A stretch of 64,000 bases of DNA from Patescibacteria group bacterium (GTDB lineage Bacteria; Patescibacteriota; Microgenomatia; UBA8517): NCBI GenBank assembly GCA_035291665.1, contig DATDRP010000006.1:74961-138960 (forward strand), read 5' to 3'. Positions 880 to 44,623 of the stretch are shown here, piece after piece. Position numbers and translations under genes: made by a program. The notes under the pieces were generated by a model, which had not been told where the DNA came from, searched no databases, and worked only from the letters and a program-made list of their open reading frames with translations. Numbering within the stretch: the stretch's first letter is position 1; each line of letters begins with the position of its first letter.

Positions 880-1027
880 TTGGATGCGTGATCGGCATGC
901 TAATGATAATTTTTAAGGTATTGACCTCGCACAACCTTACTTTTCGTTTTTTTAATACTATTCGTATACAACTCAAAGAGCGGTTTGCCGGGGTCATCAC
1001 CCCTCAAAAAACTGAGAAAGTCGGGGC

Positions 1028-1065
1028 TTGACATTCCTTTAGCACTCGTGGTACATTACTGCTAA
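1028..1065 (+). promoter_or_regulatory. Sigma70-like promoter with CIRCE-like HrcA operator
   Basis: -35 TTGACA at 1028-1033 and -10-like TACATT at 1052-1057. CIRCE is at 1039-1065: TTAGCACTC-N9-TACTGCTAA. The left half is 9/9 and the right half 6/9 against consensus TTAGCACTC-N9-GAGTGCTAA. Sits 90 nt upstream of hrcA. Confidence 0.55.
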
Positions 1066-1155
1066 TATCAGAGTAAAAGAGTGGAAAAGTAGAAGAATAT
1101 AAGATAAGTTTTTGCTTCTACTCTTATACTCTTACGCTCTTCAACTCTTAATCAT

Positions 1156-1890
1156 ATGTCCGACGCATTAACAGCAAGACAAATTCAGATTCTGAAGCAT
1201 ATTATTGATGAATACATCGAAACGGCGGAACCGGTTGGCTCTGAAGCTTTGGAGAAAAAATATAATCTTGGGATTTCCCCGGCTACTGTCAGAAACGAAA
1301 TGGCAGGCCTCATTCAAAAAGGTTTTCTGAAACAACCTCATACTTCATCAGGCCGTGTTCCTACACCAAAAGCTATGAAGTTGTATGTTGACCAATTGAT
1401 GGAAGAAAAATCAATGAGTATTGCGGAAGAGGTAAAAGCGAAAGAAGAAGTTTGGGATTCACGGGGGAATGTTGATCAGCTGTTGGAGGAGGCCACCCAT
1501 GCGTTAGCCGAACACACAAAAAGCTTGGCCGTTGCGACGCTTGATGCCTCAAACAAAGTTTGGCATGCAGGTTATAAGAATATATTTCACAGTCCAGAAT
1601 TTACAGACTCTTTGGTATGCGAATCTTTGTTTTCTTTGATTGAAGAAGTTGAAAGAATGAACGATCTTTTTTTTCATCGGGGGAATCCTTTATCACCGTT
1701 TGATTTGTTTTTTGGAGAAGAGTTGGGTTGGCAAAACCTTTCGCCGATGGGTGTAATTGCCACAAGGTTTAACCTTGGCACAAGAAGGGGTGCGCTCGGA
1801 GTGATCGGGTCAACCAGGCTTTCATATCCCCGGATTGTTCCGATACTGCGTTATTATGGAAATTTACTGGAGGAGGTAGCATCGGCATGA
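1156..1890 (+). CDS. hrcA: Heat-inducible transcription repressor HrcA
   Basis: N-terminal wHTH (LTARQIQILKHIIDEYIETAEPVGSEAL) and HrcA C-domain. First gene of an hrcA-grpE-dnaK arrangement. Its 4-nt overlap with grpE suggests coupling. Confidence 0.85.
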   Translation: MSDALTARQIQILKHIIDEYIETAEPVGSEALEKKYNLGISPATVRNEMAGLIQKGFLKQPHTSSGRVPTPKAMKLYVDQLMEEKSMSIAEEVKAKEEVWDSRGNVDQLLEEATHALAEHTKSLAVATLDASNKVWHAGYKNIFHSPEFTDSLVCESLFSLIEEVERMNDLFFHRGNPLSPFDLFFGEELGWQNLSPMGVIATRFNLGTRRGALGVIGSTRLSYPRIVPILRYYGNLLEEVASA

Positions 1891-2351
1891 AGAAAAAACC
1901 GAGTAAAGTGAATAAAGGAGAAAGAGTAAATGAAGAATTGGAACACCTGAAAAATCAATTAACTAGAGCGTTAGCCGATTATGACAATCTGAGAAAGAGG
2001 ATTGAGATAGAGAAAGAAATCTGGGTAAAATATTCAGGAGAGCGCATTATAAGCCAACTTTTACCGGTATTGGACATGTTTGAAGCAGCCCTTGCCCATA
2101 CCCAGGACCAAGGACTTGGAATAGCGGTTTCGGAATTCAAGAAAGTATTTTATGAAGAAGGGTTGAAAGAGATAAAGCCTGATAAAGGAACTGATTTTGA
2201 CGAAGCCATTCATGAAGCGGTAGAATCTGTTGAAGGCGGAGAGGACGGAAAAATTGCAGAATTGGTTTTGACGGGTTGGATGTATGAAGACGGAAGGGTT
2301 GTCAGATACGCAAAAGTAAAGGTGTTTGGAAAAGTACAAAGTGGAAAGTAA
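1887..2351 (+). CDS. grpE: Nucleotide exchange factor GrpE
   Basis: GrpE coiled-coil signature (LKNQLTRALADYDNLRKRIEIEKE) and C-terminal beta domain. Lies between hrcA and dnaK. Confidence 0.85.
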   Translation: MKKKPSKVNKGERVNEELEHLKNQLTRALADYDNLRKRIEIEKEIWVKYSGERIISQLLPVLDMFEAALAHTQDQGLGIAVSEFKKVFYEEGLKEIKPDKGTDFDEAIHEAVESVEGGEDGKIAELVLTGWMYEDGRVVRYAKVKVFGKVQSGK

Positions 2352-2378
2352 AAAGAGAAAAGTATAATTTAATGAAAT

Positions 2379-4346
2379 ATGGGAAAAATAGTTGGAATTG
2401 ATCTAGGAACAACTAATTCGGTGGTTGCTGTAATGGAAGGGGGTCACCCCAAAGTGATTCCTGCAGCTGATACCGGGCGAAACATCACGCCGTCGGTAGT
2501 GGAACCTGTTAAAAATCTTGTCGGAGATGTCGCCAAGCGCCAGGTTGTTCTTAATCCGAAAAACACAATTTATTCTATAAAGCGTCTTATGGGACGCCGG
2601 GTTGATGACGCTGAAGTTGAAAGAACCAAAAAGATGGTTCCGTATGAGATTGTTTCTTCAAAAGATAAAAACGCGGCGGTTGAAGTTGATGGTAAGACTT
2701 ATACTCCTCAGGAAGTTTCGGCAAGGATTTTGATGAAGCTCAAGAAGGATGCGGAAAGTTATCTTGGGGAGAGTGTTGACGCTGCGGTAATCACAGTACC
2801 TGCATATTTTGACGACTCTCAAAGACAAGCGACGAAGCAAGCGGGTGAAATTGCCGGATTTAAGGTTGAGCGAATTATCAATGAACCGACAGCTGCAGCC
2901 TTAGCATACGGGTTGGATAAAAAGAAAGCAGAAAAAATTGCCGTTTACGATCTTGGAGGAGGGACTTTTGATATTTCAATTCTTGAACTTGGTGATGGAG
3001 TGTTTGAGGTTAAAGCCACAAATGGAGATACCCATCTTGGAGGAGATGATTTTGATGAAAAAATCGTTGAATGGATCGTTTCTGAATTTAAAAAAGACAA
3101 TGCGGTTGACCTGACGGCTGACAAGCAGGCACTTCAGCGTGTTCGCGATGCTGCTGAAAAAGCGAAAATAGAACTTTCTGCAGCCGCCGAAACGGAGATC
3201 AACCAGCCGTATATAACACAAAAAGACGGAAACCCAATGCATTTGACTTTGAAAATGACCCGGGCGAAATTGGAGGATCTTGTTGGGGATCTCATTGAAA
3301 AAACAATGAAACCGGTTGAGGCATGTCTGAAAGATGCGAAACTGGATCCGCACGATATTGATGAGGTGATCATGGTTGGGGGAATGACGAGAATGCCCAA
3401 AGTTGTTGAGGAAGTAAAGTCATATTTTGGTAAAACTCCGAACCAGTCGGTTAATCCGGATGAAGTTGTTGCAGTTGGAGCCGCTATCCAAGCCGGAGTC
3501 TTGGGGGGCGAGGTTAAAGACATACTTCTTTTGGATGTAACTCCTTTGACATTGGGAATAGAGACACTTGGAGGTGTTGCGACCCCGATGATAACCAGAA
3601 ATACAACTATTCCTGCATCAAAGACAGAAACATTCTCAACGGCTGCTGACAACCAGACTCAGGTAGAAATTCATGTATCCCAAGGTGAGCGTCCGATGAG
3701 CGCTGATAATAAGGATTTGGGCAGGTTCATTCTCGATGGAATTCCGCCGGCACCAAGGGGCGTTCCTCAGATCGAAGTAACTTTCGATATTGACGCATCG
3801 GGAATTTTGAAAGTTACCGCCCATGACAAAGCAACCGGCAAGAGCCAAAACATTACTATCTCGGGCGCTGTGGGACTTTCTGATGATGAGGTCAAAAGGA
3901 TGCAGGATGAAGCGGAGCATCACAAAGCTGAAGACCAAAAGAAAGCTGAGAAAATTACTGCCAGAAATTCAGCTGATGCAATGGTATCTGCAGCTGAAAA
4001 AGCTCTCAAAGACGCCGGTGACAAAGCACCAAAAGATATCAAAGAAAAAGTTGAGGAAAAGATTAAAGGCGTCAAAGATGTTTTGGCAAAGGAAGATTCT
4101 TCAAAAGACGATTTGGAGAAAGCAACGAAAGATCTGTCGGACACCCTAAGTCAGGTCGGGCAGGCGATGTATGGGCAGCAACAAGCTGCAGGGCAAAGTG
4201 AAAAGAGCGAAGAGAAAAGCACGGAAGAAAAAAAGAGTGAAGGAGATGGTGAAAACAAAAAATCTTCAAAAGACAAAGATGAGAAAGCCAAAAGCCCTGA
4301 GCCTGCCGAACGGGTTGAAGAAGGAGAAGTTGTAGAAGAAGACTAA
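2379..4346 (+). CDS. dnaK: Chaperone DnaK (Hsp70)
   Basis: Canonical Hsp70 motifs: [26 protein letters not shown]. 655 aa with a K/E-rich C-terminal tail. Confidence 0.97.
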
Positions 4347-4349
4347 AAA

Positions 4350-4637
4350 ATGACAGATGACCTCGAAAACCAGGATTACTCCAGAATTTATATCCAACTG
4401 GGTTTATCAGAACAAGCTATAGAGAAATTAAAGCCTGAAGAAAAAGCCGCAATCAGTAAATTTGATAAAGCTGTGGATAAAAAAGAACGAAGTTTGGGAA
4501 GGGAGTTAACCCCCGAAGAGGAGAATGAGTTGGCAGGAACGATTGAAGGGGCATCTGAGGCAAGAATAAACTATGAAAAGTTTTATTCGGAATTAGCCGA
4601 CCAAGTCGATAAAACGGAGGGGTACGATACAAAATAG
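4350..4637 (+). CDS. Hypothetical small acidic protein (95 aa) inside the dnaK operon
   Basis: Intact ORF that starts 4 nt after the dnaK stop. No recognisable domain. Confidence 0.4.
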   Translation: MTDDLENQDYSRIYIQLGLSEQAIEKLKPEEKAAISKFDKAVDKKERSLGRELTPEEENELAGTIEGASEARINYEKFYSELADQVDKTEGYDTK

Positions 4638-4641
4638 CTTT

Positions 4642-4887
4642 ATGTCTCCGGAAAATTTAACCCCACTTGAATCGTTCAATAGGAAAAGAGACTTGCTCCT
4701 TGAAGAATGGGAACAGGTTCATGGAGACAAATCTAACTGGAGTTATAATTTAACCGACCGTTTTGTTGATGCTGTATTAAGTTCGGTAACTTATGAGGAG
4801 GGTCTTGCCCACAAACGTGACACTGATCAGTGGTTGAGAACGAAAGCGCTCGCTGTAAATAAATATAATCAATACCATAGAAATTAA
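4642..4887 (+). CDS. Hypothetical small protein (81 aa) inside the dnaK operon
   Basis: Intact ORF 5 nt after the previous one. No recognisable domain. Confidence 0.4.
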   Translation: MSPENLTPLESFNRKRDLLLEEWEQVHGDKSNWSYNLTDRFVDAVLSSVTYEEGLAHKRDTDQWLRTKALAVNKYNQYHRN

Positions 4888-4890
4888 CTC

Positions 4891-4945
4891 TTAACAAACT
4901 CCCCATAGATTTATATAATTAGCACTTGAGATATTTGAATGCTAA
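4891..4945 (+). promoter_or_regulatory. Second promoter plus CIRCE operator upstream of dnaJ
   Basis: -35-like TTAACA at 4891-4896, then a 17-nt spacer, then -10 TATAAT at 4914-4919. This overlaps CIRCE at 4919-4945: TTAGCACTT-N9-GAATGCTAA, 16/18 to the CIRCE consensus. Confidence 0.6.
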
Positions 4946-5105
4946 TTGCCGTCCTCTTAAAATCCTAGTATCCTAATATCTTAATATCATTCTGAAATAT
5001 GGTTGGAAAATCCGATTACTACGACCCCGTACTGTTCTTACTTGCTCCCAAGTACTACGTGCTTGCGTCGCAAGAGCGAAAATACGGGGCAGGCATTTCT
5101 TGACT

Positions 5106-8278: not shown

Positions 8279-8413
8279 AATGTAATTATACCTTATAGTT
8301 AAAAATTAATAAATCAATTTGTTTGGTAAAGCTTAATTTAATGTAACTCATCTTACGATTTATTGACTCGGAAACGCATTACTTGTACACTATCAGTGGT
8401 TAGAAATGGATGA

Positions 8414-8441
8414 GGTGGGAATTTTGCCCGCCTTTTTTGTT
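8414..8441 (+). terminator. Intrinsic-terminator-like hairpin in the nusA leader (candidate attenuator)
   Basis: Stem GGTGGG / CCCGCC (6 bp with one G-U pair), loop AATTTTG, then TTTTTTGTT. It lies after a TTGACT (8363-8368) ... TACACT (8386-8391) promoter and 90 nt upstream of nusA. Confidence 0.4.
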
Positions 8442-8529: not shown

Positions 8530-9828
8530 ATGCAGACACCAAGAACAGAATTTGCACAAGCCCTTCGGGCAATCGCAGCTGAGCGGGATCTTGATCCCGA
8601 GGTTATTATTGACACCATTAAGCAGGCAATTGTTGCTGCTTATAAAAGGGATGCCAAAGATCAAGGTGTCGAAACTGAAGAGTTTGAGTATGAAGTTGAG
8701 TTGAACCCCTCAAACGGTGAAGCAAAAGTTTTTTCGTGGCCACTGGAGAAACCCGAAGAGAAAAAAGATGTAACACCCCCCGGTTTCGGAAGGATAGCAG
8801 CCCAAACAGCAAAACAGGTAATTCATCAAAAGATCCGTGAGGCTGAAAAAGGGGCCATTATCAGTGAGTACAGCGAAAAAGTCGGCAGTCTTGTGACGGG
8901 AATGATACTTCGTTTCGAAGGCTCGGACGTTCGTGTTGATCTTGGAAAAACAGAAGGGATAATGCCGGCGTCGGAAAGAGTCCCGAACGAAAGATTAAAC
9001 GCCAATCAAAGGCTGACGTTTTTGCTGAAAGAAATCACAGAAACTCCGAAGGGAAAACTATTAACCCTCTCAAGGTCTGATCCCCAATTCGTTCAAAAAC
9101 TTTTTGCGAGAGAGGTTCCTGAGATCGGTTCGGGAAGTGTTGAAGTGAAAGGGATTGTCAGAGAACCGGGAGTAAGGTCAAAAATTGCCGTGTTTTCGAA
9201 TCAATCAGGAGTTGATCCGGTTGGCTCATGTGTCGGTCAAAAAGGTGTCCGGGTACAATCCGTCACAAATGAACTTGGCGGAGAGAGGGTTGATATTGTT
9301 CCTTTTAATATCGATTTGGTTGAATTTGTCAAAGCAGCACTTTCTCCTGCGGAAGGATTAAGCGTTTCGATCAGCAAAGACAAGACAGGTGCAATTGTTA
9401 AAGCTCCGGAGGACCAGCTTTCCCTGGCTATCGGACGTGAAGGACAGAATGCGCGTTTGGCATCAAAATTGACCGGAGTAAAAATTGATATTGAAGGTAT
9501 TCCCGGAGAGAAAACCCCAAAGTCTGTAGAAAAAGAGGAAGTAAAAGTGAAAACTGAAGAGAAGGCGGATTTGGTACCCTCGGATGAAAAACCGGCTGAA
9601 GAGGCTCCTCTTGCTGGAGAGGCTGATTTACCAACCCAAACACAGCCTATACAAGCTAACGATTCCGCTTCGAACAATTCCGGAAGCGCTCCGTCGGATG
9701 ATCAGGCAGGTAGCGTTACAAGTAATGACAATACGGCAGTCCCACAGGCTGAAGAAACCGCAGACACTAAAGAAGTATCCGTTGACGATTTGAAAAAGCA
9801 GGGAGACGATAAAAAAGACGAAGCTTAA
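8530..9828 (+). CDS. nusA: Transcription termination/antitermination factor NusA
   Basis: N-terminal domain, S1 and two KH domains. Acidic, low-complexity C-terminal tail. No AR1/AR2. Confidence 0.9.
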   Translation: MQTPRTEFAQALRAIAAERDLDPEVIIDTIKQAIVAAYKRDAKDQGVETEEFEYEVELNPSNGEAKVFSWPLEKPEEKKDVTPPGFGRIAAQTAKQVIHQKIREAEKGAIISEYSEKVGSLVTGMILRFEGSDVRVDLGKTEGIMPASERVPNERLNANQRLTFLLKEITETPKGKLLTLSRSDPQFVQKLFAREVPEIGSGSVEVKGIVREPGVRSKIAVFSNQSGVDPVGSCVGQKGVRVQSVTNELGGERVDIVPFNIDLVEFVKAALSPAEGLSVSISKDKTGAIVKAPEDQLSLAIGREGQNARLASKLTGVKIDIEGIPGEKTPKSVEKEEVKVKTEEKADLVPSDEKPAEEAPLAGEADLPTQTQPIQANDSASNNSGSAPSDDQAGSVTSNDNTAVPQAEETADTKEVSVDDLKKQGDDKKDEA

Positions 9829-34149: not shown

Positions 34150-37100
34150 ATGGAACCATTAACAGGTTTAAAAAATTTAATCGATTTTAAGAAGTTGATA
34201 ATAAGTCTTGCATCACCGGAGGATATCCGGAAGTGGTCTCGTGGTGAAGTTACGAAGCCTGAAACGATTAATTACCGGACTTTGAAACCTGAAAAGGACG
34301 GACTTTTCGATGAACGGATCTTTGGTCCGACGAAAGATTGGGAATGTTACTGCGGAAAGTATAAAAGGATCAGATACAAAGGAGTTATTTGTGATAAATG
34401 CGGTGTCGAAGTTACGCAGTCGCGTGTCAGACGGGAAAGAATGGGTCATATCGGTCTTGCCTCTCCCGTTGTTCATGTTTGGTATTTCAAAGGCGCTCCT
34501 TCGAAATTGTCGCTCCTTTTGGATGTTCCTCCAAGAGCTATCGAACAAGTAATCTATTTTGCAAGATATTTGGTATTAAGCGTTGAGGATAAAAAGAAGA
34601 AAGAAGCGATTGTCAGGATTGAAAAAGCTTGGGCGGAAAAGGATAAAGAGCTCAAAGAAGGATATGAACAAAGACGGACTGTTTTGAAAGATAAAGCAAA
34701 AGAGGAGAAGCAAAAAGTCGAGAAGAAGATCAAAAATAAAGAACAAGTTTCCCTTGCACTATCGGAAGTTGAGCTTGATTTCAGAAAGAAAGAGGCGACG
34801 CTTACAAAAGAGGAAAAGCAAACACTCCAAAGAACTCAGGAACTATTTGAAAATTTAGGATTAACTGTTAAAGATCTTAAGGAGCTTTCCATTCTATCCG
34901 AAGAGGAATACGAACAGTTGTCTATTTATGATGCAGCGGACTTTTTTGAAGCAAAAATGGGTGCCGACGGAGTGTTAGCGGCAATCGGCAAAGTAAATCT
35001 TGAAGAATTGAACGTCCAATTAAGAAAAGACCTTTTGGAAACCAAAAACATATCATCGAAATATGTAAAATTGGCAAAGCGTTTGAAGCTGATTGACGGT
35101 ATGAGAAGGGCAAAAGTTAATCCTTCCTCTATGGTTTTGAGGGTTCTACCAGTGCTTCCACCCGATCTTCGGCCGATGGTCCAATTATCAGGCGGAAGGT
35201 TTGCCACCTCAGATTTAAACGATTTATACCGGAGAGTAATAAATCGAAACAACAGATTAAAGCATCTTATCAATTTGGGAGCACCGGAAATTATTTTGCG
35301 AAATGAAAAAAGAATGCTTCAGGAATCGGTTGATTCATTAATTGATGCATCTCAAAGAAAAGCAACCCGCAGGGGCAGGGGGAAGCAACCATTAAGATCT
35401 CTTTCGGATATGCTTAAAGGTAAACAAGGAAGATTCAGGCAAAACCTTCTTGGAAAAAGAGTCGATTACTCGGGAAGATCTGTTATTATAGTCGGACCCG
35501 ACCTTTCCCTTAATGAATGCGGCATTCCTAAAGAAATGGCACTTGAAATGTTCAAGCCGTTTGTCCTTAAGGAAATGATACTTCGCGGAATAGCCCCAAA
35601 TGTAAAAAGTGCCAAAAACATGCTGGATAAAAGACCTCCTGAAGTTTTTGATATTTTGGAAGAGATTACGAAAAATCATCCTGTAATTCTAAATCGTGCC
35701 CCGACACTTCATAAACTTTCAATTCAGGCATTTTACCCGGTTCTGATTGAGGGCGACGCAATCAGGTTGCATCCTGCTATTTGTTCAGGTTTTAATGCAG
35801 ACTTTGACGGGGATCAGATGGCAGTTCATGTACCACTTTCTGTCAAAGCCGTGGATGAAGCAAGAGAGTTGATGCTTCCGGAAAAAAATCTTCTCCGACC
35901 GTCAGACGGCTCGCCCGTATCGACGCCGGCAAGCAAGGAAATGGCGTTGGGAGTTTATTACATGACAAAAATTAATGTAAAAATCGAGCCTTATTGGTCA
36001 GTCTTTGCATCAAAGGAAGAAGCAATAAAAGCCTATCAATCCCAAGTCATAGATCTTAAGCAGCAAATCCCTTTGTACCTGAATGGCGAGATAATTGATA
36101 CGACTGCCGGAAGGATATTATTTAATGAAGCGCTTCCCGAGAATTTTGATTTTGTAAACGAAGCCGTAACTTCGACTCTGATAAAACAGCTGTTTGCTAA
36201 AGTGTATGCCGATAGCGAATCCTCGGTTGTTGCCAAGATGATCGATAAGGTTAAGGATCTTGGGTTTTTGGGAGGAACCTTATCAGGTTTTTCTTTCGGA
36301 ATATTTGATGCCAAAGTGTATCCGGGTAAGGCTCAAATACTAAAAAATGCCGATAAAAAGGTTGCTGAGCACGAAAAGAACTACGAAACAGGTCTTATTA
36401 CCGCTGAAGAAAAGAAAAGATTGGTTCAGGAAGTCTGGATTGAAACAACTGAAGAATTGACGGATAAAACTTGGGAGCTTCTTGACAGTGATAATCCGAT
36501 TAAAACAGTCATTGATGCGAAAGTCGGACGTACTTCAAGAGATCAGGTGAAGCAGCTTGCAGCTATTCGCGGACTTGTTGTTGACCCGCTCGGAAAAATC
36601 GTCGAAATGCCTATCAAATCTAATTTCAGAGAAGGATTGTCGGTTTTTGAATACCTTACTTCGTCCCGAGGTTCAAGAAAAGGTCTTACAGACACCGCGC
36701 TGAAAACCGCAGATGCAGGTTATCTAACCCGTCGGCTCGTTGATGTTGCCCACGATGTTTTGATACGTAAGGACGATTGCGGAACAACCAAGGGTATTGA
36801 GATCAGAAAAGGCGACAGACCGAAGTTTATTGAAAGGCTTGTCGGCCGGGTTTTGGCAGAACCGGTTAAAGATGCAAAAGGAAAGGTTCTTATTGCCAAC
36901 TCCACGCTTTTGAGTACGGCGGATCTTAAATTGATTGATGAAAGCAAAGTTGAGAAAGTGATCATCCGTTCGCCTTTGACTTGTGAAGAAAGATACGGAG
37001 TTTGCTCAATGTGTTACGGCAGAGATCTTTCCAAAAAGGGTTTTGTTGAAATTGGAACACCAGTTGGAGTAATCGCTGCACAGTCAATTGGTGAGCCGGG

Positions 37101-37878
37101 AACTCAGCTTACGCTTCGTACCAAGCATAGCGGTGGAGTTGTTGGAGTTGATGTTACACAGGGTCTTCCGAGAGTGGAAGAACTTTTTGAGGCAAGGACG
37201 CCGAAGGTGTTTTCGCCCCTGACGGAAATTTCAGGCAAGGTTACACTCGGTGAAGTTGAGGAAGGTTGGAAAGTAACAGTTACCTCTGTTACCGCAAAAC
37301 CGAAAGAAGAAAGAGAGTATATCGTTCCCAAGACCCTAAAGATTGGTGTTGAGGATAAACAATTAGTTGATTCCGGCGTACCTCTTGCAGAAGGGTATCT
37401 TGATATCAAAGAAATTCTTGCCATCCGCGGACTTCGATCAGCCCAGGAATATCTTGTGAATGAAATTCAATCGGTTTATGAAAATCAGGGAATTCCCATA
37501 AACGATAAGCATTTCGAGGTAATGGTTCGCAAAATGAGTGACGAAGTTAAAGTTATAACCGCCGGCGACACACCGCTCTTGCCCGGAGAGCTGGTTGATA
37601 AAGCATCATTTGAAGAAGAAAATGAGAAAGTTCTTGCTGCAGGCGGAGAACCAGCAACTGCGCAACAGGTTATTTTGGGAATCACCAGAAGGGCACTCTT
37701 TACGGAAAGCTGGCTGTCAGCTGCTTCGTTCGAACAGACGACCGATGTTCTTACCAACGCATCTCTTCTTGCAAAAGAAGATAAACTTTTGGGATTGAAG
37801 GAAAATGTTATAATCGGCAGGCTGATTCCGGTCTCTGTAGAGAAAGCATCGGAAATGAGTGTATCAAGAACGAGATAA
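34150..37878 (+). CDS. rpoC: DNA-directed RNA polymerase subunit beta'
   Basis: 1242 aa. Zn-binding [27 protein letters not shown] catalytic motif, and a C-terminal Cys cluster. Confidence 0.97.
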
Positions 37879-37882
37879 ATAT

Positions 37883-38347
37883 ATGCCTACATCACAACAA
37901 TTAATAAGAAAAGGCAGGAAAAAAGTTATCAAGAAGTCCAAAAAAGGGGCTTTGAGGCGTTGGTTTAACGCAAAAGACAGACGGTTTGGCGAGAACCCAT
38001 CACCTTTCAAAAGAGGTGTTGTGCTTCTGGTCAGGACAATGACACCCAAAAAACCAAATTCAGCCTTGAGAAAAATCTGCCGGGTAAGATTATCCAATAA
38101 ACAGGAAGTTACAGCCTATATTCCCGGAGAAGGTCATGAGTTGGCGGAACACTCAATGGTTTTGGTCAGATACGGTCGTGTTAAGGATTTACCCGGAGTG
38201 AAATACCAAGTTGTGAGGGGGAAACTTGATACAACCGGAGTTTCGGGAAGAAAGAGTTCACGAAGCAAATACGGTGCGAAAAAATCCGGAATGGTAACAG
38301 GACCCGTTGGAGCTGCAGCTCCGGCTGAACCTGCCGCACAAGGTTAA
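37883..38347 (+). CDS. rpsL: 30S ribosomal protein S12
   Basis: [13 protein letters not shown] ... [10 protein letters not shown]. Short Ala/Pro C-terminal extension. The ATG at 37883 lies inside a longer listed ORF. Confidence 0.9.
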
Positions 38348-38369: not shown

Positions 38370-38846
38370 ATGGCAAGAAGGGGTAGTTCAAAACCAAAGA
38401 AAATTAATCCCGATCCCGTTTATAAAAATAGGCTGGTTGCTAAATTTATAAACCGGGTAATGCATGATGGCAAAAAAAGCGTAACCCAGAAACAGGTTTA
38501 TGACGCTTTTGAACTGTTGAAAAAAGACGGTGATGATCCGATTAAGGTTTTTACTCAGGCAGTCGAAAACATCAAACCGAATATGGAAGTTCGGGCACGA
38601 AGAATCGGAGGGGCAGCATATCAAATTCCAATACCCGTTCGCGGATCAAGAAAAGAATCTCTTGCCATCAGATGGCTGGTTGGTTCGACAAGGGCAAGAT
38701 CAAATTCCGAATTTAAGACTTTTGCCGAAAAACTGGCTGTAGAACTCAAGGATGCTATCAAAGGGGAAGGTCTTGCGATGAAAAAGAAAAACGATATGGA
38801 AAGAATGGCCGAAGCCAACAAAGCTTTCTCTCACTTCAAGTGGTAA
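38370..38846 (+). CDS. rpsG: 30S ribosomal protein S7
   Basis: 158 aa with S7 signature segments. Confidence 0.9.
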   Translation: MARRGSSKPKKINPDPVYKNRLVAKFINRVMHDGKKSVTQKQVYDAFELLKKDGDDPIKVFTQAVENIKPNMEVRARRIGGAAYQIPIPVRGSRKESLAIRWLVGSTRARSNSEFKTFAEKLAVELKDAIKGEGLAMKKKNDMERMAEANKAFSHFKW

Positions 38847-38884
38847 ATTAAAACATTTTCATAAACTTCTAAGGAGTTTTTTAT

Positions 38885-39223
38885 ATGGATAAGGAAAATA
38901 AAAACCAAGAACTTCTTCCGGAAGTTACACGAGCACTTCAAAAAATTTATTCTATTTACGGTAAAGAATCCGATTGGGGATGGCTGGTAAAAGCTGTCTT
39001 AAGATGTAGGTTAGCCAAATTATCGTCGTTTAAAGCGATGGAGTTGAGATCTGATATTTTATTAGGCAAAAAGAAATGCCCAATGAGTGGTATTACAACA
39101 GATCAATTTCTGGCTCCTCATCCTGCCGACAACATTGCGGGTGCAATCGCGGCAAGAAATTTTCCCGAGAAGTGTCCGCTTTGTGGACAAGAGCCCGGAG
39201 TATTTGATTTTGATATCGAATAG
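38885..39223 (+). CDS. Hypothetical Cys-containing protein (112 aa) inserted between rpsG and fusA
   Basis: Intact ORF with KKKCPMSG ... KCPLCGQ (possible C4). No family recognised. Confidence 0.4.
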   Translation: MDKENKNQELLPEVTRALQKIYSIYGKESDWGWLVKAVLRCRLAKLSSFKAMELRSDILLGKKKCPMSGITTDQFLAPHPADNIAGAIAARNFPEKCPLCGQEPGVFDFDIE

Positions 39224-39263
39224 GGAATTTGATACTGATGGGAATTGTTGTTACAATATCTTA

Positions 39264-39291
39264 CTGCTTCGGAATCGAAGCAGATTTTTTT
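39264..39291 (+). terminator. Rho-independent terminator
   Basis: Perfect 8-bp stem CTGCTTCG-GAAT-CGAAGCAG followed by A and TTTTTTT. Confidence 0.7.
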
Positions 39292-39305
39292 GTAAAAATT
39301 ATTTC

Positions 39306-39337
39306 TTAATATCTTAGTATCATAATATCGTAATATC
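39306..39337 (+). repeat. 4 x octamer tandem repeat (TTAATATC, TTAGTATC, ATAATATC, GTAATATC) immediately upstream of fusA
   Basis: Exact 8-nt period. It ends 10 nt before the fusA ORF. A related 3-unit array is at 4965-4988. Confidence 0.55.
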
Positions 39338-39347
39338 TTTTTAAAGT

Positions 39348-41510
39348 ATGCCTGTACAAGCAACAAAGAAAAAAGCAAGTCTTGTTATGACGGTTACCAA
39401 AGACCGGGAAGTTTCAATGGAAAAAATCAGAAACATTGGGATTATTGCCCATATTGACGCCGGAAAAACAACAACAACAGAAAGACTTCTTTTTGAAACG
39501 GGAAAAACATACAAGCAAGGATCGGTCGATGAAGGAACAACCGTAACCGATTGGATGGACCAGGAACGGGAGCGTGGAATTACAATTGTTTCTGCAGCAA
39601 TCACAACTTTTTGGGATCTTAAAGAACAAGGGTCAGTTGAAAACGGGCATTACAGAATCAATATTATTGACACGCCGGGGCATATTGACTTCACTGCGGA
39701 AGTTGAAAGATCACTGCGTGTTCTGGATGGTGCGATCATGGTTTTTGACGGCCGGACTGGTGTTGAATCTCAATCAGAAACGGTCTGGCGTCAGGCTGAC
39801 AAATATAATGTTCCGAGAATTTGTTCACTTAACAAATTGAATCTGATTGGTGCGGACTTTGAAGGTTCAATAAAATCTATTAAAGATAAACTTGGAGCAA
39901 ATGCATCCCCAATCCAGATTCCGATTGGCCTTGAACATGAACATAGGGGAATAGTTGATCTAATCAAGATGAAAGCTCTCACCTATAAGGGTATTGAAGA
40001 CAACGAATTGACGGTTGAGGAAATTCCAAGCGATCTTAAGGAAATGGCCGATAAATATCGGCAACAGCTGATTGAAGCTGTGTCCGAATTTGATGATGAA
40101 GCCTTGGCAAAATATCTTGAAGGAAGCGAACCCAATGAAACTGAGCTTAAAAGAGCGATTCGAAAAGGTGTTGTATCAGGGAAGTTTTTTCCAGTTCTTG
40201 GGGGCGACAACAGAATGGCAACAGCAAAGCTTTTATTGAATGCGGTTGTTGAATACTTGCCTTCTCCTTTGGATGTCCCGCCGGTTCATGGAATTAACCC
40301 AAGAACAGGAGAAAAAGCAGAAAGAAAACCTGAAAATACGGAACCCTTCAGTGCCCTTGCATTCAAAGTTGTAACAGATCCGCATGTCGGACGATTGGTA
40401 TACATAAGAATTTATTCAGGGAAAGTGAAACCGGGGGATTCGATTTATAACGTAGCAAAACAAAAAGGTGAACGTGTGGGAAAATTGGTACTTTTGCATG
40501 CAGATCAAAGAGAGTTGATTGAAGAAGCGTTTACGGGAGAAATCGTTGCCGTTGTAGGAATCAAAGATACTTCAACAGGAGATTCCCTGTGTGACCCGAA
40601 TAACCTGATTTCATTGGAGTCAATTTCTTTTCCCGAACCGGTTATTTCGCTTGCGATTGAACCGACAACAAAAGCTGATCAGGAAAAAATGGGACTTGCG
40701 CTACAGAAGCTTTCGGATGAAGATCCCACATTCAGGATAAAATCCAATCCGGAGACAGGCCAAACAATTATTTCCGGAATGGGAGAGCTTCAGCTTGAGA
40801 TCTTAGTTGACCGGATGAAGAGGGAATTCAACGTCAACGCCACAACCGGATCACCCCAGGTTGCTTATAAAGAAACAGTTAAGAAGAGTGCTGAAGGTGA
40901 AGGAAAGTATATTCGCCAAACAGGAGGCCGTGGTCAATATGGCCACTGTTTCATCAGGGTTGAACCGCTAGGCCGTGGCGAAGGAGTTGCATTTGAATCA
41001 GCAATTAAAGGCGGAGCGATTCCGGCTGAATTTGTTACATCTATTGAAAAAGGAGTCAAAGAGAAGTTTGAAAAAGGAATCATGGCAGGTTTTCCGGTAA
41101 CAGATATTAAAGCTGTAGTATATGACGGAACTTATCACGATGTTGATTCATCCGACATTGCCTTTAAGATTGCCGGTTCAATGGCAGTTGAAGCTGCGGT
41201 AAGAAGAGCTGATATGATTCTTCTGGAACCGATCATGAAGGTTGAGGTTTCCACCCCCGAAGAATTTATGGGAGACATTATTGGAGACCTTTCAAGTAAG
41301 CGCGCACAAATTCAGGGAACAGAAACCAGAGGGTTGGAAACCGTTGTAAATGCAGTTGCACCATTAGCCGAGCTTTCGGGTTATGCCACCAAACTACGGT
41401 CAATTTCTCAGGGACGAGCGCGTGCGTATGTTGAGCCTTCTCACTATGAAGAAGTTCCCAAAAATATTGCTGATGCGATTGTTGCCAAGAGTGGGAAGTC
41501 CGCAGAATAA
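39348..41510 (+). CDS. fusA: Elongation factor G
   Basis: G domain (IGIIAHIDAGKTTTTE, DTPGHIDF) and domains II-V. The true start may be an internal Met at 39387 (MTVTKDREVSMEKIRNIG). Confidence 0.95.
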   Translation: MPVQATKKKASLVMTVTKDREVSMEKIRNIGIIAHIDAGKTTTTERLLFETGKTYKQGSVDEGTTVTDWMDQERERGITIVSAAITTFWDLKEQGSVENGHYRINIIDTPGHIDFTAEVERSLRVLDGAIMVFDGRTGVESQSETVWRQADKYNVPRICSLNKLNLIGADFEGSIKSIKDKLGANASPIQIPIGLEHEHRGIVDLIKMKALTYKGIEDNELTVEEIPSDLKEMADKYRQQLIEAVSEFDDEALAKYLEGSEPNETELKRAIRKGVVSGKFFPVLGGDNRMATAKLLLNAVVEYLPSPLDVPPVHGINPRTGEKAERKPENTEPFSALAFKVVTDPHVGRLVYIRIYSGKVKPGDSIYNVAKQKGERVGKLVLLHADQRELIEEAFTGEIVAVVGIKDTSTGDSLCDPNNLISLESISFPEPVISLAIEPTTKADQEKMGLALQKLSDEDPTFRIKSNPETGQTIISGMGELQLEILVDRMKREFNVNATTGSPQVAYKETVKKSAEGEGKYIRQTGGRGQYGHCFIRVEPLGRGEGVAFESAIKGGAIPAEFVTSIEKGVKEKFEKGIMAGFPVTDIKAVVYDGTYHDVDSSDIAFKIAGSMAVEAAVRRADMILLEPIMKVEVSTPEEFMGDIIGDLSSKRAQIQGTETRGLETVVNAVAPLAELSGYATKLRSISQGRARAYVEPSHYEEVPKNIADAIVAKSGKSAE

Positions 41511-41514
41511 ATCT

Positions 41515-41853
41515 ATGATAAAGGAAATTCAAATTGAATTAGGTACTGTTTTTACGATTTCCGAACGGTATTTAAATGAATTCCGAACTAATGTTGTAAC
41601 CGATCCGGGGGAGGAAAAATGGTTCCAATCGGGGATCCTGTTTCAGGACGAAAAAGGATTGAATATGATTGCTCCCGGAGGTACAGGTGGAATTGAAGAC
41701 GTTAAAGAGATAGTTGGAAAAATGAAAAAAGAGGAAGTAATTGAGGCAATGAAGAGATTTTGGGTGTTCAAACATCATCGCGATTTTCCGAAGGAACTAT
41801 TAGATGATATTGAAAAGTGTGCAGAGAAAGGTTCCAGAATTCTGGGCAGTTGA
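41515..41853 (+). CDS. Hypothetical protein (112 aa) inserted between fusA and tuf
   Basis: An ATG 5 nt after the fusA stop opens an intact ORF (MIKEIQIELGTVFTISERY...). The listed longer ORF, 41383-41853, overlaps fusA in another frame and is trimmed here. Confidence 0.4.
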   Translation: MIKEIQIELGTVFTISERYLNEFRTNVVTDPGEEKWFQSGILFQDEKGLNMIAPGGTGGIEDVKEIVGKMKKEEVIEAMKRFWVFKHHRDFPKELLDDIEKCAEKGSRILGS

Positions 41854-41973
41854 TTGAGCTGATATCAACTTGTTTTACTTGGATATTGTTTAGGCAGCAA
41901 AGTCAGCGATTGCGGGTAAGACGAAAGTTGAGTATTGACAAGCCTAATTAGCCTTGATTATAATACCAACACT

Positions 41974-41999
41974 AGGACATCAAATGTCCTTGTTTTTTT
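41974..41999 (+). terminator. Rho-independent terminator
   Basis: AGGACAT-CAA-ATGTCCT (7-bp stem) followed by TG and TTTTTTT. It sits just downstream of a strong TTGACA (41935-40) ... TATAAT (41959-64) promoter-like pair. Confidence 0.7.
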
Positions 42000-42060
42000 G
42001 AAGAGAAGAATTTATACTTAAATTTGGTTAATCGTATTAACTAAATTAAAATTAATTAAA

Positions 42061-43260
42061 ATGGCCGGAGAAGCAAAACAAAAATTTGAAAGAAATAAAC
42101 CACATGTCAATGTCGGGACTATTGGCCATGTTGACCATGGAAAAACAACTTTAACTGCAGCCATTACAACTGTTCTTTCCAAGCAAGCCGGAAATAAAAC
42201 AAAAGCCTTCAAGTTTGACGAAATTGATAACGCCCCTGAAGAAAAAGAAAGAGGAGTCACAATTAATATTTCCCACATCGAATACGAAACAGAGAAACGT
42301 CATTACGCCCATATCGACGCTCCTGGACACGCAGACTACATTAAGAATATGATCACGGGCGCTGCTCAGATGGATGGCGCAATTTTGGTTATTTCTGCTC
42401 CTGACGGACCTATGCCCCAAACCCGAGAACACATTATCTTGGCCCGCCAGGTTAACGTTCCGGCACTTGTGGTTGCGCTTAACAAAATTGATGCCATGGA
42501 CGATCCGGAACTTATTGAACTAGTTGAAAGCGATATCCGTGAGCTTCTGAAAAAATATCAGTATCCGGGCGATGAGATTCCCATAGTCAGAGTCTCTGCA
42601 CTTAAAGCTCTCGAAGGCGATGCCGAAGCTGAGAAACAAATTTTGGAATTAATGAAGAAAGTAGATGAATATATTCCGGATCCCGTAAGAGATACCGACA
42701 AGCCGTTTTTAATGCCGGTCGAGGATGTTTTCTCAATCAAAGGCCGGGGAACAGTGGCCACCGGTAGGGTTGAAAGAGGAAAGCTTAACCTTAATGAAGA
42801 AGTTGAAGTTATCGGACTGAAAGCAACAACAAAATCGGTTGCAACCGGTCTTGAGATGTTCAGAAAAAGTCTTGATTTCACCCAGGCTGGGGATAACGTC
42901 GGAGTTTTGCTTCGGGGAATAGAAAAAGATGATATTGAAAGAGGTCAGGTCCTTGCAAAACCAGGATCAATTACTCCCCACACAGAATTTGAAGCTGAGG
43001 TTTATATACTATCCAAAGAGGAAGGCGGACGTCATACGCCGTTCTTCACAGGCTACAAACCTCAGTTCTTCATTAGAACAGCAGATGTTACGGGAGATGT
43101 AACTCTTCCTGAAGGAATTGAAATGGTTATGCCCGGCGACAGCGCCAAAATGAAAGTGAAACTTATTCAACCGGTAGCATGTGAAGAAGGGTTCCGTTTT
43201 GCAATTCGTGAAGGCGGATCCACAGTTGGTGCCGGTGTTATCACCAAGATATTGGTTTAG
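42061..43260 (+). CDS. tuf: Elongation factor Tu
   Basis: [27 protein letters not shown] and domains II/III. 399 aa. Confidence 0.97.
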
Positions 43261-43295: not shown

Positions 43296-43607
43296 ATGGC
43301 AACTGGCAGGCTCAGAGTTAAGCTGAAAGGATATGATCACCGCTTAGTAGATGAAGCGGCAGCTAAGATATTGGATGTAGCCATTGCAACAGGTGCCAAA
43401 ATAGTCGGTCCTATTCCTTTGCCCACAAGAAGAACTCTTTATCCCGTTGTTCCCGCAACCTCGCGCGGAATCAAAAATGCCCAGGAACACTTTGAAATGC
43501 TCGTCCATAAAAGATTAATTGATATACAAGACCCCTCCAATAGAACGATAGACTCACTCTCCAATCTCGATCTCCCGGCAGGCGTCAGCATAGAAGTGAA
43601 AATGTAA
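43296..43607 (+). CDS. rpsJ: 30S ribosomal protein S10
   Basis: 103 aa. RLRVKLKGYDHRLVDEAAAKI matches the S10 signature. Confidence 0.9.
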   Translation: MATGRLRVKLKGYDHRLVDEAAAKILDVAIATGAKIVGPIPLPTRRTLYPVVPATSRGIKNAQEHFEMLVHKRLIDIQDPSNRTIDSLSNLDLPAGVSIEVKM

Positions 43608-43681: not shown

Positions 43682-44042
43682 ATGAAGTACTTGAAACTGA
43701 AAGATATAGGTGCTTACCGCAGATCATATGCACTTTCAAATTACATTTGGGAATTAGTAATAAAGTGGAACACCTTCACCAAAAACACCATTGGATCACA
43801 GTTTGTCCGAGCAGTAGATTAATGTAGCGGAAGGATTTGGAAAATATTATGTTAAAGATATGATAAGACACTATCGGATTTCTAGGGGTTCAACATTAGA
43901 GTCATTGGATTGGAATGAAAAAGCCAAGAAGCGTAATTTGTTAAATAAGACGGAATACAGTTATATTCTTCAAGAATTACTAAGTCTCCCTCTGGAAATT
44001 AACCAGCTAATTAAATTTACAAAGAAAAACCTAAATCAGTAA
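43682..44042 (+). pseudogene. Disrupted four-helix-bundle protein gene (PF05635-like '23S rRNA intervening-sequence protein' family)
   Basis: The N-terminal part (MKYLKLKDIGAYRRSYALSNYIWELV ... GSQFVRAVD) runs into an in-frame TAA at 43820-43822. The family-typical continuation INVAEGFGKYYVKDMIRHYRISRGSTLESL resumes in the +1 frame, which is the listed ORF 43860-44042. Confidence 0.5.
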
Positions 44043-44071
44043 TAATAGTTTAGTAATTAAATAATATAATA

Positions 44072-44623
44072 ATGAAATCATTTGTTTCCCGTGCTGGAGA
44101 AAAATTACAATTTGCCTTGGATCAATTTAAAATTTCCGTGATGGATCTTACGGTTGCCGATTTTGGATCTTCAACCGGTGGTTTTGTGGATTGTTTACTC
44201 CAAAACGGAGCCAAAAAAGTTTATTCTGTTGATACTGCATATGGCGAGCTAGCCTGGACGCTTCGAAAAGACCCAAGGGTGGTTGTCATGGAACGCACGA
44301 ATGCTATGCATGTGAGGCTCCCTGAAAAGGTTGATCTGGTTACAATTGACACTTCCTGGACAAAACAGAGTAAGGTGCTTCCTAATGCGTTTGAGAGTCT
44401 TGTAGCGGGTGGATTTGTTATATCTTTGATAAAACCTCATTATGAGGCCGGGAAGGGAAAACTGAAGGCGGAAGAGGTGGATAAAGTGTTGAAAGTAGTA
44501 AAGGTAGATATTGAGTCAGCTGGAGGAAAAGTAAAAAATTTGGTTGAATCTCCGATTTTGGGTGAAAAAGGCAAAAACCGTGAATTCCTGGCTTTTATAA
44601 AACCGGCTCTCCCAATAGTGTGA
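44072..44623 (+). CDS. tlyA: TlyA-family rRNA 2'-O-methyltransferase (FtsJ-like domain only, no S4 domain)
   Basis: SRAGEKLQFALDQFKISVMDLTVADFGSSTGGFVDCLLQNGAKKVYSVDTAYGELAWTLRKDPRVVVMERTN matches the TlyA/FtsJ SAM-binding core. Confidence 0.7.
   Translation: MKSFVSRAGEKLQFALDQFKISVMDLTVADFGSSTGGFVDCLLQNGAKKVYSVDTAYGELAWTLRKDPRVVVMERTNAMHVRLPEKVDLVTIDTSWTKQSKVLPNAFESLVAGGFVISLIKPHYEAGKGKLKAEEVDKVLKVVKVDIESAGGKVKNLVESPILGEKGKNREFLAFIKPALPIV

Follow-up and report, generated by a model that had tools for sequence, protein, structure and literature searches.

The window analysed here, a 64-kb stretch of DNA, comes from an ultra-small groundwater Patescibacteria bacterium, which is Woesebacteria-like and has its relatives among the Microgenomates. 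Gene order was taken from the ORF list of this window. The genes rpoB-rpoC-rpsL-rpsG are followed by a short reading frame (ORF1), fusA, a second short reading frame (ORF2), tuf and rpsJ (Table 1). Compared with the relatives, rpsG shows 50-75% identity (tblastn) and tuf 72-91%, and fusA carries an N-terminal extension (MPVQATKKKASLVMTVTKDR..) which is conserved in the clade. Both reading frames, the two hairpins, the octamer array and the TTGACA-N18-TATAAT site had been listed in a preliminary description of this DNA, and all of them were confirmed in position. Its view that the str cluster is split into separately terminated units is supported by the sequence, and the units appear to be separately promoted as well. 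It had started from an operon that is normally contiguous, a premise which fails in this clade, where the gap between rpsG and fusA measures 75-2761 nt and that between fusA and tuf 72 to about 2650 nt. In the Microgenomates relatives both gaps hold unrelated cargo, like a signal peptidase/RDD fusion, a Trp-repressor-like gene, DUF559, KsgA, a 23S-IVS-type protein, a dockerin-like protein of 806 aa and several orphans. Breaks in the "universal" str operon are routine here, a point of importance for annotation that relies on synteny.

Table 1. Genes and putative signals of the str region, with positions in the window
Feature	Position	Strand	Details
rpoC	34150-37878		ORF list
rpsL	37883-38347		start 4 nt past the rpoC stop
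rpsG (S7)	38370-38846	+	ORF list; final canonical gene of the rpoB-rpoC-rpsL-rpsG unit
ORF1	38885-39223	+	112 aa, 4 Cys
Promoter-like site for fusA	39229-39257	+	TTGATA-17-(TGt)TACAAT; 10/12; extended -10 type with TG
Hairpin 1, fusA leader	39264-39291	+	CTGCTTCG-GAAT-CGAAGCAG, then A+T7; stem-loop 39264-39283
Octamer tandem array, fusA 5' leader	39304-39339	+	TCTTAATA x4.5; TRF
fusA (EF-G)	39348-41510	+	ORF list
ORF2	41515-41853	+	112 aa
tuf promoter P1 (predicted)	41935-41964	+	TTGACA-18-TATAAT; 12/12 match
Hairpin 2, tuf leader	41974-41999	+	AGGACAT-CAA-ATGTCCT, then TG+T7; stem-loop 41974-41990
Candidate second promoter P2	41990-42018	+	TTGTTT-17-TATACT; -35 overlaps the T-run; weak
tuf (EF-Tu)	42061-43260	+	ORF list
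rpsJ	43296-43607		ORF list

Putative promoter and hairpin modules ahead of fusA and tuf

Hairpin 1 begins 41 nt past the ORF1 stop and consists of 8 bp, five of them G-C pairs, with a GAAU loop (-12.4 kcal/mol, z = -4.3). Its U-tract, one A followed by seven T, occupies positions 39284-39291. The promoter-like site ahead of this hairpin is not mentioned in the preliminary description. Its TGnTAnAAT element recurs in at least 11 lineages, and in the form TGnTA(A/C)AAT it lies 5-6 nt ahead of the hairpin in L008, L009, L010, L011, L013, L014, L016, L019, L045, L048 and L054. Downstream of the hairpin, the octamer array falls in a region that is predicted to be unstructured, and no Shine-Dalgarno sequence was found ahead of the fusA ATG. 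Significant repeats with a period of 7 or 8 occur no more than 70 nt from the fusA ATG in 12 of 23 lineages (tuf: 2 of 20). The fusA repeat arrays point to Shine-Dalgarno-independent initiation or regulation as their possible function.

Promoter P1 of tuf is the sole 12/12 site in the 64 kb, where 0.08 would be expected. The same perfect match occurs in seven lineages (the window, L001, L008, L009, L010, L052 and L054), two more (L013 and L014) show 11/12, and the distance to the hairpin is always 6-10 nt. Hairpin 2 begins 121 nt past the ORF2 stop. Both hairpins had been called strong terminators, which is adequate for hairpin 1 but not for hairpin 2, a weak structure of 7 bp with only three G-C pairs (-8.4 kcal/mol, z = -2.2). 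The G at the second position of its U-tract (41991-41999) is conserved in relatives. The candidate promoter P2 scores 8-9/12 and holds a fixed position relative to the stem end in the window, L001, L008, L009, L010, L014 and L054. Matches of this grade arise often in AT-rich sequence; the -10-like element past the T-run could be the true mRNA promoter.

The number of terminator-like sites in the region (15) equals the shuffle expectation (15.4), and therefore the significance of the hairpins comes from their conservation in relatives and not from the scan. A hairpin with a T-run was detected upstream of fusA in 15 of 23 lineages and upstream of tuf in 13 of 20, against a background of 0.63 per kb or about 0.10 expected per 160-nt region; the enrichment rests on this comparison of per-lineage detection with the background rate. 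The leader stems differ in sequence between lineages yet stay paired, and G-U wobbles occur on the + strand only (for the fusA hairpin in L048, L009 and L013). Among the tuf stems at least eight different sequences were found, for example AGGACAT, GAGGG, GAGGC, GGCTT, ACCACGC and AGCCTCA. RNAalifold predicted no pairs on a MAFFT alignment of the tuf leaders because stems of differing length fall out of register. A search with Rfam 15 gave no match at gathering score in the whole window and only noise (E > 0.5) in 38800-42100. A third such layout, a promoter-like site followed by a hairpin and a T-run, lies ahead of nusA (8363-8434). Since the upstream neighbour of nusA is divergent, the hairpin cannot terminate an upstream gene there. 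Nothing specific was found in the literature on promoter-proximal terminators or on operon structure in the Candidate Phyla Radiation.

The leader modules are independent of ORF1 and ORF2. In L001, which is without ORF2, the block of tuf promoter, hairpin and T-run is nevertheless kept almost base for base, and L008, L009, L010, L013 and L014 possess both modules while homologs of ORF1 and ORF2 are absent. The hairpins had been regarded as part of the ORF insertions, which does not agree with their presence ahead of fusA and tuf in these relatives.

Two reading frames of different standing

ORF1 is preceded by a Shine-Dalgarno sequence (AAGGAG, 8 nt ahead of the ATG), and neither a promoter nor a terminator was found between rpsG and ORF1. 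Its codon log-likelihood ratio is +0.19 per codon in frame. A profile search among 1.84 billion representative proteins revealed a family of 23 representatives with a length of about 80-110 aa; for the metagenome scan a 7-sequence alignment served as the query. The four cysteines (C41, C65, C97 and C100) follow the family pattern C-x23-C-x31-CxxC. In alignment A2, C65, P66, P80, C97 and C100 are invariant, and C41 is conserved in members which extend that far. ORF1 is a genuine gene under selection, and its family is undescribed. The homolog was located between rpsG and fusA in 8 of the 11 lineages of known context, in one of them in inverted orientation; this slot is held by it in the window, L001-6/L051, L045, L048, L050, L052, L053 and L054-56. 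Three family members are located elsewhere, the inverted copy is restricted to one lineage, and one lineage shows an in-frame TAA. In L007 to L010 the slot is occupied by ORFs unrelated to ORF1. The small ORFs after rpsG in L007, L008 and L009 were considered as divergent homologs and rejected (hhalign probability <1%). ORF1 keeps its position across lineages and therefore a link to the gene-expression machinery is plausible, although the synteny may reflect shared ancestry alone.

The AF2 model of ORF1 is very confident (pLDDT 93.9, pTM 0.83), and searches of PDB and BFVD gave no structural neighbour. Neither ORF1 nor ORF2 gave an above-threshold match in Pfam, NCBIfam, PHROGs, PADLOC or the PDB sequences; matches in PHROGs had E >= 0.1 only, and PADLOC returned none. 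The top Pfam match of ORF1 is RUBY_RBDX with 17.8 bits (cut-off 26.5), and sub-threshold matches to rubredoxin knuckles were seen in 7 of the 23 family members. The preliminary description had named zinc ribbons and ribosome-associated folds as examples to look for; ORF1 is not typical of a zinc ribbon or of a ribosomal protein. As a zinc ribbon or rubredoxin-like domain ORF1 was rejected on its single CxxC (C97, C100) where two would be needed, the isolated C41 and C65 and a score below the Pfam gathering threshold. As a bacterial ribosomal protein it was rejected on its near-neutral charge (pI 7.6; family range 4.1-9.2; S10, S7 and S12 in this window 9.7-11.2), on the slot without a homolog in the relatives L007-L010 and on the PDB ribosome chains, none of which matches ORF1 by sequence or fold. 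ORF1 is thus probably not a core ribosomal protein. Most likely the four conserved cysteines serve as ligands of a single metal ion, either Zn or, as in rubredoxin knuckles, Fe. ORF1 may function as a small metal-stabilised protein with a binding partner among the components of transcription or translation.

ORF2 starts 4 nt past the fusA stop without a Shine-Dalgarno sequence and is probably co-transcribed with fusA. Among 5.8 billion proteins it matched only itself, and it was not found in the relatives L001 and L052. Its single-sequence AF2 model reaches a pLDDT of 46, too poor for a structure search. The preliminary description had suggested that both reading frames may encode lineage-specific translation-associated factors; for ORF2, with no homolog at all, nothing speaks for a translation role. 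With no homologs, no Shine-Dalgarno sequence, a poor model and its absence from relatives, ORF2 might have arisen by chance as an open frame, or be what is left of a decaying gene, in a long spacer between fusA and tuf. We consider this quite unlikely, as its codon log-likelihood ratio of +0.23 in frame (-0.72 and -0.50 off frame) falls in the range of real genes and off-frame windows give -0.46 +/- 0.15. In addition, by an estimate from base composition, DNA of 38% GC would run on for 112 codons without a stop with a probability of about 5e-4 for each start position, the ATG 4 nt after the fusA stop is compatible with termination-reinitiation, and ORF2 is also present in other samples of the same strain. 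Mobile-element, defence or phage cargo was considered for both ORFs and rejected because no family in PHROGs or PADLOC matched. Around ORF2 no flanking repeats, target-site duplications or inverted repeats were found.

A str cluster of three putative units

The explanation that we favour, with a probability of about 0.6, is a str cluster of three units in which fusA and tuf would have leader modules of their own, ORF1 would be fixed cargo and ORF2 an orphan. In place of one str operon there would be the units rpoB-rpoC-rpsL-rpsG-ORF1, fusA-ORF2 and tuf-rpsJ with the genes that follow. A predicted sigma-70-type promoter, a distance of 5-10 nt, a short hairpin and a T-run form a conserved module of fusA and of tuf, which is presumably older than ORF1 and ORF2. 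The gaps ahead of the modules appear to tolerate insertions, the cargo of which differs by lineage; ORF1 may be one such cargo that became fixed, and ORF2 a strain-specific orphan gene carried on the fusA transcript. The hairpin with its U-tract would terminate RNA polymerase coming from upstream, insulating the next unit. The stem follows the end of the -10 element by 5-6 nt at fusA and by 6-10 nt at tuf. With a predicted start 7 nt past the -10, transcripts of the adjacent promoter would start either inside the 5' arm or 0-3 nt ahead of it, and therefore the hairpin would sit at the extreme 5' end, where it could shield the very abundant fusA and tuf mRNAs from 5'-end-dependent decay. Against such a stabilising role, a 5' stabiliser needs no conserved U-tract, and the U-tract would stop transcripts from the adjacent promoter too, given that the predicted P1 transcript contains the whole tuf hairpin.

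This location inside the P1 transcript would suit promoter-proximal attenuators which set the output of fusA and tuf, with upstream insulation as a secondary effect. As weak terminators, they would work with an efficiency governed by NusA/NusG, NTP levels or some binding protein. The conserved U-tract fits this idea, as does the tuf hairpin, which is weak and has a G-interrupted U-tract; in Bacillus subtilis, a weak hairpin with such a U-tract is of the NusA-dependent type. The same layout recurs ahead of nusA, and B. subtilis nusA autoregulates via leader terminators. However, there is no room for an alternative antiterminator structure ahead of the hairpin, no loop or flank sequence is conserved for a binding protein, and most initiations would be wasted at the strong fusA hairpin (-12.4 kcal/mol). 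Overall, we regard attenuation as unlikely, though with a chance worth keeping in mind. It is hardly credible that the inverted repeats act as DNA and not as RNA hairpins, as operators which bind a dimeric repressor just past the start site in the manner of lacO. The palindromes are centred at about +10 from the predicted start, and the P1 spacer and some stems share AG(G/C)CT pentamers. The operator reading was rejected because the stems are wholly different between lineages with pairing kept, the G-T (G-U) pairs occur on the + strand only, and a conserved T-run has no role in an operator.

The preliminary description had proposed two insertions, each with its own terminator, which split a str operon that is otherwise contiguous, and had suggested that both may code for lineage-specific factors associated with translation. 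A hairpin with a T-run does follow both ORFs, and ORF1 stays beside rpsG. Yet hairpins exist in relatives without the ORFs (the tuf hairpin of L001, which has no ORF2, and the fusA hairpin of L008-L014, which have no ORF1), a conserved promoter of the downstream gene precedes each hairpin, ORF2 has no homologs and the cluster is broken clade-wide. L001 and L008-L014 already largely refute this reading, which we now consider very improbable. A more far-reaching idea is that ORF1 is the founder of a Microgenomates-specific, metal-stapled family of new fold which binds the ribosome, EF-G or RNA polymerase, and that the modules, together with the species-specific period-7/8 arrays in the fusA leader, which is without a Shine-Dalgarno sequence, constitute a control system for the elongation-factor genes of Patescibacteria that has not been described. 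This combination is speculative and rather doubtful. If true, the terminator would stop incoming polymerases yet spare those started a few bases upstream, and the repeat array would serve to attract ribosomes or an oligomeric regulator that binds RNA.

The findings overturn no known principles. In Patescibacteria the ribosomes are reduced, and hardly any molecular biology has been done by experiment. Among candidates for a partner of the gene-expression machinery that is specific to the lineage, ORF1 is a concrete one, being a conserved four-cysteine protein which is confidently folded in the model, lacks any structural neighbour and is fixed beside rpsG. The order of promoter, hairpin and U-tract at both elongation-factor genes offers a natural test case for whether an intrinsic terminator can discriminate polymerases by their start point.

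Comparison with known systems

With rubredoxin-like and zinc-ribbon knuckles, ORF1 shares the C-terminal CPxCG knuckle and the sub-threshold matches to the rubredoxin-like domain of rubrerythrin. The small Cys4 ribosomal proteins (bL31, bL32, bL33, bL36 and uS14) resemble it in their four conserved cysteines, their small size and the ribosomal-protein neighbourhood. In contrast to all of these, ORF1 has one CxxC, and the other ligands would be isolated cysteines, 23 and 31 residues apart. In B. subtilis, ybxF (rplGB, L7Ae-like) is encoded between rpoC and rpsL and is likewise a small, lineage-restricted gene for a non-universal protein in the rpoBC-str region. In neither sequence nor fold is it related to ORF1, a Cys4 protein for which no structural neighbour was detected.

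Internal tuf promoters of the str operon lie within fusA in E. coli and in the fusA-tuf spacer in Bacillus. These systems and the window have in common that tuf has a strong promoter of its own after fusA, in the window a predicted one, besides being transcribed from upstream. The promoter described here differs by its perfect consensus, the hairpin with U-tract within 6-10 nt and the equivalent module at fusA, and the upstream unit appears to be terminated and not read through. Stem-loops at the 5' end stabilise mRNA in the E. coli ompA and the B. subtilis aprE and ermC leaders. The likeness would lie in a hairpin which is predicted 0-3 nt from the 5' end of a highly expressed mRNA. We know of no such stabiliser with a conserved U-tract after the hairpin or placed to terminate an upstream unit, whereas here the U-tract is conserved and the hairpin stands behind the upstream unit. 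In the rplKAJL-rpoBC cluster of E. coli, the attenuator between rplL and rpoB is not directly preceded by a promoter. It is similar in that a hairpin resembling an intrinsic terminator lies within a gene cluster for transcription and translation and partitions expression levels; the modules described here are distinguished by the order of promoter and hairpin, which is conserved in at least nine lineages.

The str region and the leaders of fusA and tuf

All features named in the preliminary description (the two ORFs, the hairpins, the octamer array and the TTGACA-N18-TATAAT sequence) were located in the window, together with a promoter-like site before hairpin 1 that had been overlooked. ORF1 and ORF2 are the additional genes between rpsG and fusA and between fusA and tuf, respectively; hairpins 1 and 2 are the stem-loops upstream of fusA and tuf, and P1 is the promoter preceding the hairpin.

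Features of the str region in the window
Feature	Position	Description
rpoC	34150-37878	
rpsL	37883-38347	
rpsG	38370-38846	
ORF1	38885-39223	112 aa
Promoter-like site before hairpin 1	39229-39257	TTGATA-17-TACAAT with TG extension
Hairpin 1	39264-39283	8-bp stem, then A+T7
Octamer array	39304-39339	TCTTAATA, 4.5 copies
fusA	39348-41510	
ORF2	41515-41853	112 aa
tuf promoter P1	41935-41964	TTGACA-N18-TATAAT
Hairpin 2	41974-41990	7-bp stem, then TG+T7
tuf	42061-43260	
rpsJ	43296-43607	

A strong terminator had been proposed after each ORF. This holds for hairpin 1 (-12.4 kcal/mol, z -4.3), but hairpin 2 folds with modest stability (-8.4 kcal/mol, z -2.2). The 12/12 promoter consensus of tuf P1 occurs a single time in the 64 kb, with 0.08 instances expected. 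The raw count of terminator-like sites equals the expectation from shuffled sequence, and the case therefore rests on the comparison with relatives. Rfam, applied with gathering thresholds to the 64 kb including the ribosomal-protein clusters, returned no RNA genes or known leaders.

An S7-based scan with one genome per species revealed 30 loci. Woesebacteria, Microgenomates, Blackburn-, Levy-, Beckwith-, Shapiro- and Collierbacteria are frequent labels among them, and many others are generic or evidently unreliable. A 'Patescibacteria group bacterium' MAG encodes a hypothetical protein with the same sequence as ORF1, and the closest relative of ORF1 is found in Candidatus Woesebacteria GW2011_GWA1_39_21. 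The strain of the window recurs in several groundwater metagenomes, among them JGI 3300002407 and 3300002120, where contig names begin with C687J, and several ENA assemblies with ERZ accessions.

Locus L001 of the GW2011_GWA1_39_21 lineage lacks ORF2, yet its fusA-tuf spacer still contains TTGACA-18-TATAAT, a hairpin (AGGACA/TGTCCT) and then TGTTTTTTTGAAGAG, a block almost identical to that of the window. An equivalent module lies upstream of tuf in L008, L009, L010, L013, L014, L052 and L054, and a variant form in L024, L026 and L027. The stems are divergent yet complementary (GAGGG/CCCTT, GAGGC/GCCTC, GGCTT/AAGCC, ACCACGC/GCGTGGT, AGCCTCA/TGAGGCT), P1 matches the consensus at 12/12 positions in seven lineages and 11/12 in two, and the distance from the end of P1 to the stem is always 6-10 nt. 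The stem is followed at a constant spacing by a second -10-like element (TTG-17/18-TATACT, TATAAT or TAAAAT; 8-9/12), which may be a promoter P2; matches of this kind are frequent in AT-rich DNA. The P1 spacer of the window (41939-41956) and of relatives carries two AG(G/C)CT pentamers 4-5 nt apart. In the window they form a near-palindrome, and in L009, L010, L013 and L024-27 this pentamer also makes up the hairpin arms.

The fusA module consists of an extended -10 (TGnTA(A/C)AAT), 5-6 nt, a CTGCTTC-type hairpin and a T-run. It is present in the window, L008-L011, L013, L014, L019, L045, L048 and L052, and weakly in L054. Several of its stems include G-U pairs, which are possible in plus-strand RNA only (L048 CTGCTTCC/GGAGGCGG, L009, L013). 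In the 160 nt before the gene, a hairpin with T-run was found for fusA in 15 of 23 lineages and for tuf in 13 of 20; the background rate is 0.63 per kb, equal to about 0.10 for each such region. Many module-bearing genomes have neither ORF1 nor ORF2. Together with the tuf hairpin of L001, this contradicts the view that each ORF ends with its own terminator: judged from these comparisons, the hairpins are part of fusA and tuf and not of the ORFs.

Since no promoters or terminators were found between rpsG and ORF1 or between fusA and ORF2, the predicted units are rpoB to rpsG-ORF1, fusA-ORF2 and tuf-rpsJ onwards. For a polymerase arriving from upstream, hairpin and U-tract have the anatomy of an intrinsic terminator. 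A P1 transcript starting 7 nt past the -10 would begin 0-3 nt before the 5' arm or just inside it, which would make the hairpin 5'-terminal; with this inferred start the geometry would be that of known mRNA stabilisers. Hairpin and U-tract probably have a dual use as insulator and stabiliser, which is the reading that we prefer. A rival reading is attenuation, in which part of the promoter-initiated transcripts would also stop at the U-tract, and the conservation of this tract speaks in its favour. A reading of the palindromes as DNA operators was rejected: pairing persists although the stems differ in sequence, some of the pairs are wobbles, and the T-run is conserved.

A similar arrangement was observed at 8363-8434 of the window, where 20 nt separate TTGACT-17-TACACT from a downstream 8-bp hairpin with T-run, 96 nt upstream of nusA (8530-9828). 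It looks like a leader attenuator of nusA. The upstream neighbour lies divergently on the other strand, which excludes termination of an upstream gene here, and the shared layout indicates that promoter, hairpin and T-run form a leader feature in this genome.

The two additional genes

ORF1 is a real, conserved gene. AAGGAG precedes its ATG and its codon usage is gene-like, with an in-frame score of +0.19 per codon (in-frame gene windows +0.33 +/- 0.09, off-frame -0.46 +/- 0.15). A word-indexed search retrieved one relative only; a full HMMER profile search of 1.84 billion representatives gave a family of 23 clusters with 52-143 aa. In the family alignment C65, P66, P80, C97 and C100 are invariant, and G61, N83, D108 and F109 nearly so. 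The fourth cysteine, C41 in an (F/R)CR motif, is kept in members that extend far enough, resulting in the pattern C-x23-C-x31-CxxC. Because H79 is not fully conserved, the predicted ligand set is likely Cys4. The AlphaFold2 model obtained with the family alignment (pLDDT 93.9, pTM 0.83) has the order helix, beta-hairpin, helix, strand, helix, strand. Against Pfam, NCBIfam, PHROGs, PADLOC and PDB sequences, the only matches were sub-threshold ones of the CPxCG knuckle to a rubredoxin-like domain, seen in 7 of the 23 members. With a pI of 7.6 (family 4.1-9.2) ORF1 is near neutral, in contrast to S7, S12 and S10 of the window (9.7-11.2).

The genomic context of ORF1 homologs was recoverable in 11 lineages, and in eight of them, including the window, the gene lies between rpsG and fusA. 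Identities in this slot are 52% (L001-6/L051), 50% (L045), 48% (L052), 44% (L054-56), 42% (L053), 37% (L050) and 32% (L048). Three members are located elsewhere, one of them after proS. On the three independent contigs L054, L055 and L056 the homolog (3495-3755) occupies the slot on the opposite strand, where it converges with rpsG and diverges from fusA; a hairpin, GTCAACCC-GGC-GGGTTGAC, separates it from rpsG. In the GW2011_GWA1_39_21 lineage (L001 5860-6186; L002-L006) the homolog is colinear from its ATG onwards, but codon 10 is an in-frame TAA, which recurs unchanged in six assemblies that derive from different samples. The first conserved cysteine is missing from the annotated product of 61 aa, and the gene could be a recent pseudogene, be read through or use an unusual start. 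In the equally close relatives L007, L008 and L009 the slot is taken by small ORFs of no relation to ORF1. The association with rpsG is real. Given the inverted, TAA-bearing, relocated or missing homologs, it may reflect shared ancestry as much as function; the protein is no universal component.

ORF2 matched only itself among 5.8 billion proteins, had no match in family and structure libraries, and was not found by tblastn across about 50 related loci. Relative to L001, ORF2 corresponds to an indel of about 370 nt that lies past the fusA stop and ahead of the conserved promoter block, and no flanking repeats were found. Its codon score of +0.23 in frame, compared with -0.72 and -0.50 in the other frames, is gene-like; the ATG follows the fusA stop by 4 nt, and the single-sequence model is poor (pLDDT 46). 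ORF2 is probably a strain-specific gene co-transcribed with fusA.

Repeats in the fusA leader and variable junctions

The leader containing the octamer array is predicted to be unstructured and has no Shine-Dalgarno sequence. Significant tandem repeats of period 7/8 within 70 nt upstream of the ATG were detected for fusA in 12 of 23 Microgenomates lineages (the window, L008, L009, L014, L027, L029, L050, L052 and L054 among them) and for tuf in 2 of 20. These fusA leaders usually lack a Shine-Dalgarno sequence as well. The units are species-specific (TAGTATC/TAATATC, TAGGATT, TTATCCC, TTTTTAC, CTCTTTCA, CTAGTNN), and many contain a UAA or UAG triplet. What is conserved is the type of feature and not its sequence. 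The repeats might serve ribosomes as a standby or S1 site, bind an oligomeric RNA-binding protein or, in some species, supply one arm of a longer leader hairpin. At 39348-39425, ahead of the G1 region, EF-G carries an N-terminal extension (MPVQATKKKASLVMTVTKDREVSMEK...) that is conserved in relatives; compared with E. coli EF-G it adds about 16 residues.

The preliminary description started from a normally contiguous rpsL-rpsG-fusA-tuf order. This premise was not borne out, as the gaps in relatives span 75-2761 nt (rpsG-fusA) and 72 to about 2650 nt (fusA-tuf) with differing, lineage-specific cargo: a signal peptidase/RDD fusion, an opposite-strand Trp-repressor-like gene, a DUF559 nuclease-like protein, KsgA, 23S-IVS-type four-helix-bundle genes (intact between fusA and tuf in L024 and L027), a 265-aa membrane protein, a secreted 806-aa dockerin-like protein (fusA-tuf gap of L045, 9323-11743) and orphans. 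Judging by these gene orders, contiguity of the str operon should not be taken as ancestral here. In L045 (GCA_040961665.1) rpoB and rpoC are called as a single 2355-aa product (1-5065). The rpsJ-rplC junction of the window is also broken (43682-44623), by two short ORFs followed by an FtsJ-type methyltransferase. The short ORFs look like a decayed four-helix-bundle gene, one of them matching the 23S rRNA intervening-sequence protein family weakly (E 0.001).

The observation of interrupted gene order is confirmed, and its interpretation as separately terminated units with possible translation-associated factors is partly supported. Internal tuf promoters, attenuators within gene clusters and stabilising 5' hairpins are known kinds of element, as are lineage-specific small genes in the rpoBC-str region, like ybxF of B. 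subtilis. We count as new the conserved order of consensus promoter, hairpin and U-tract before the two elongation-factor genes, the fusA leader's repeat arrays, and the ORF1 family of undescribed Cys4 proteins, which has no structural neighbour in PDB or BFVD.
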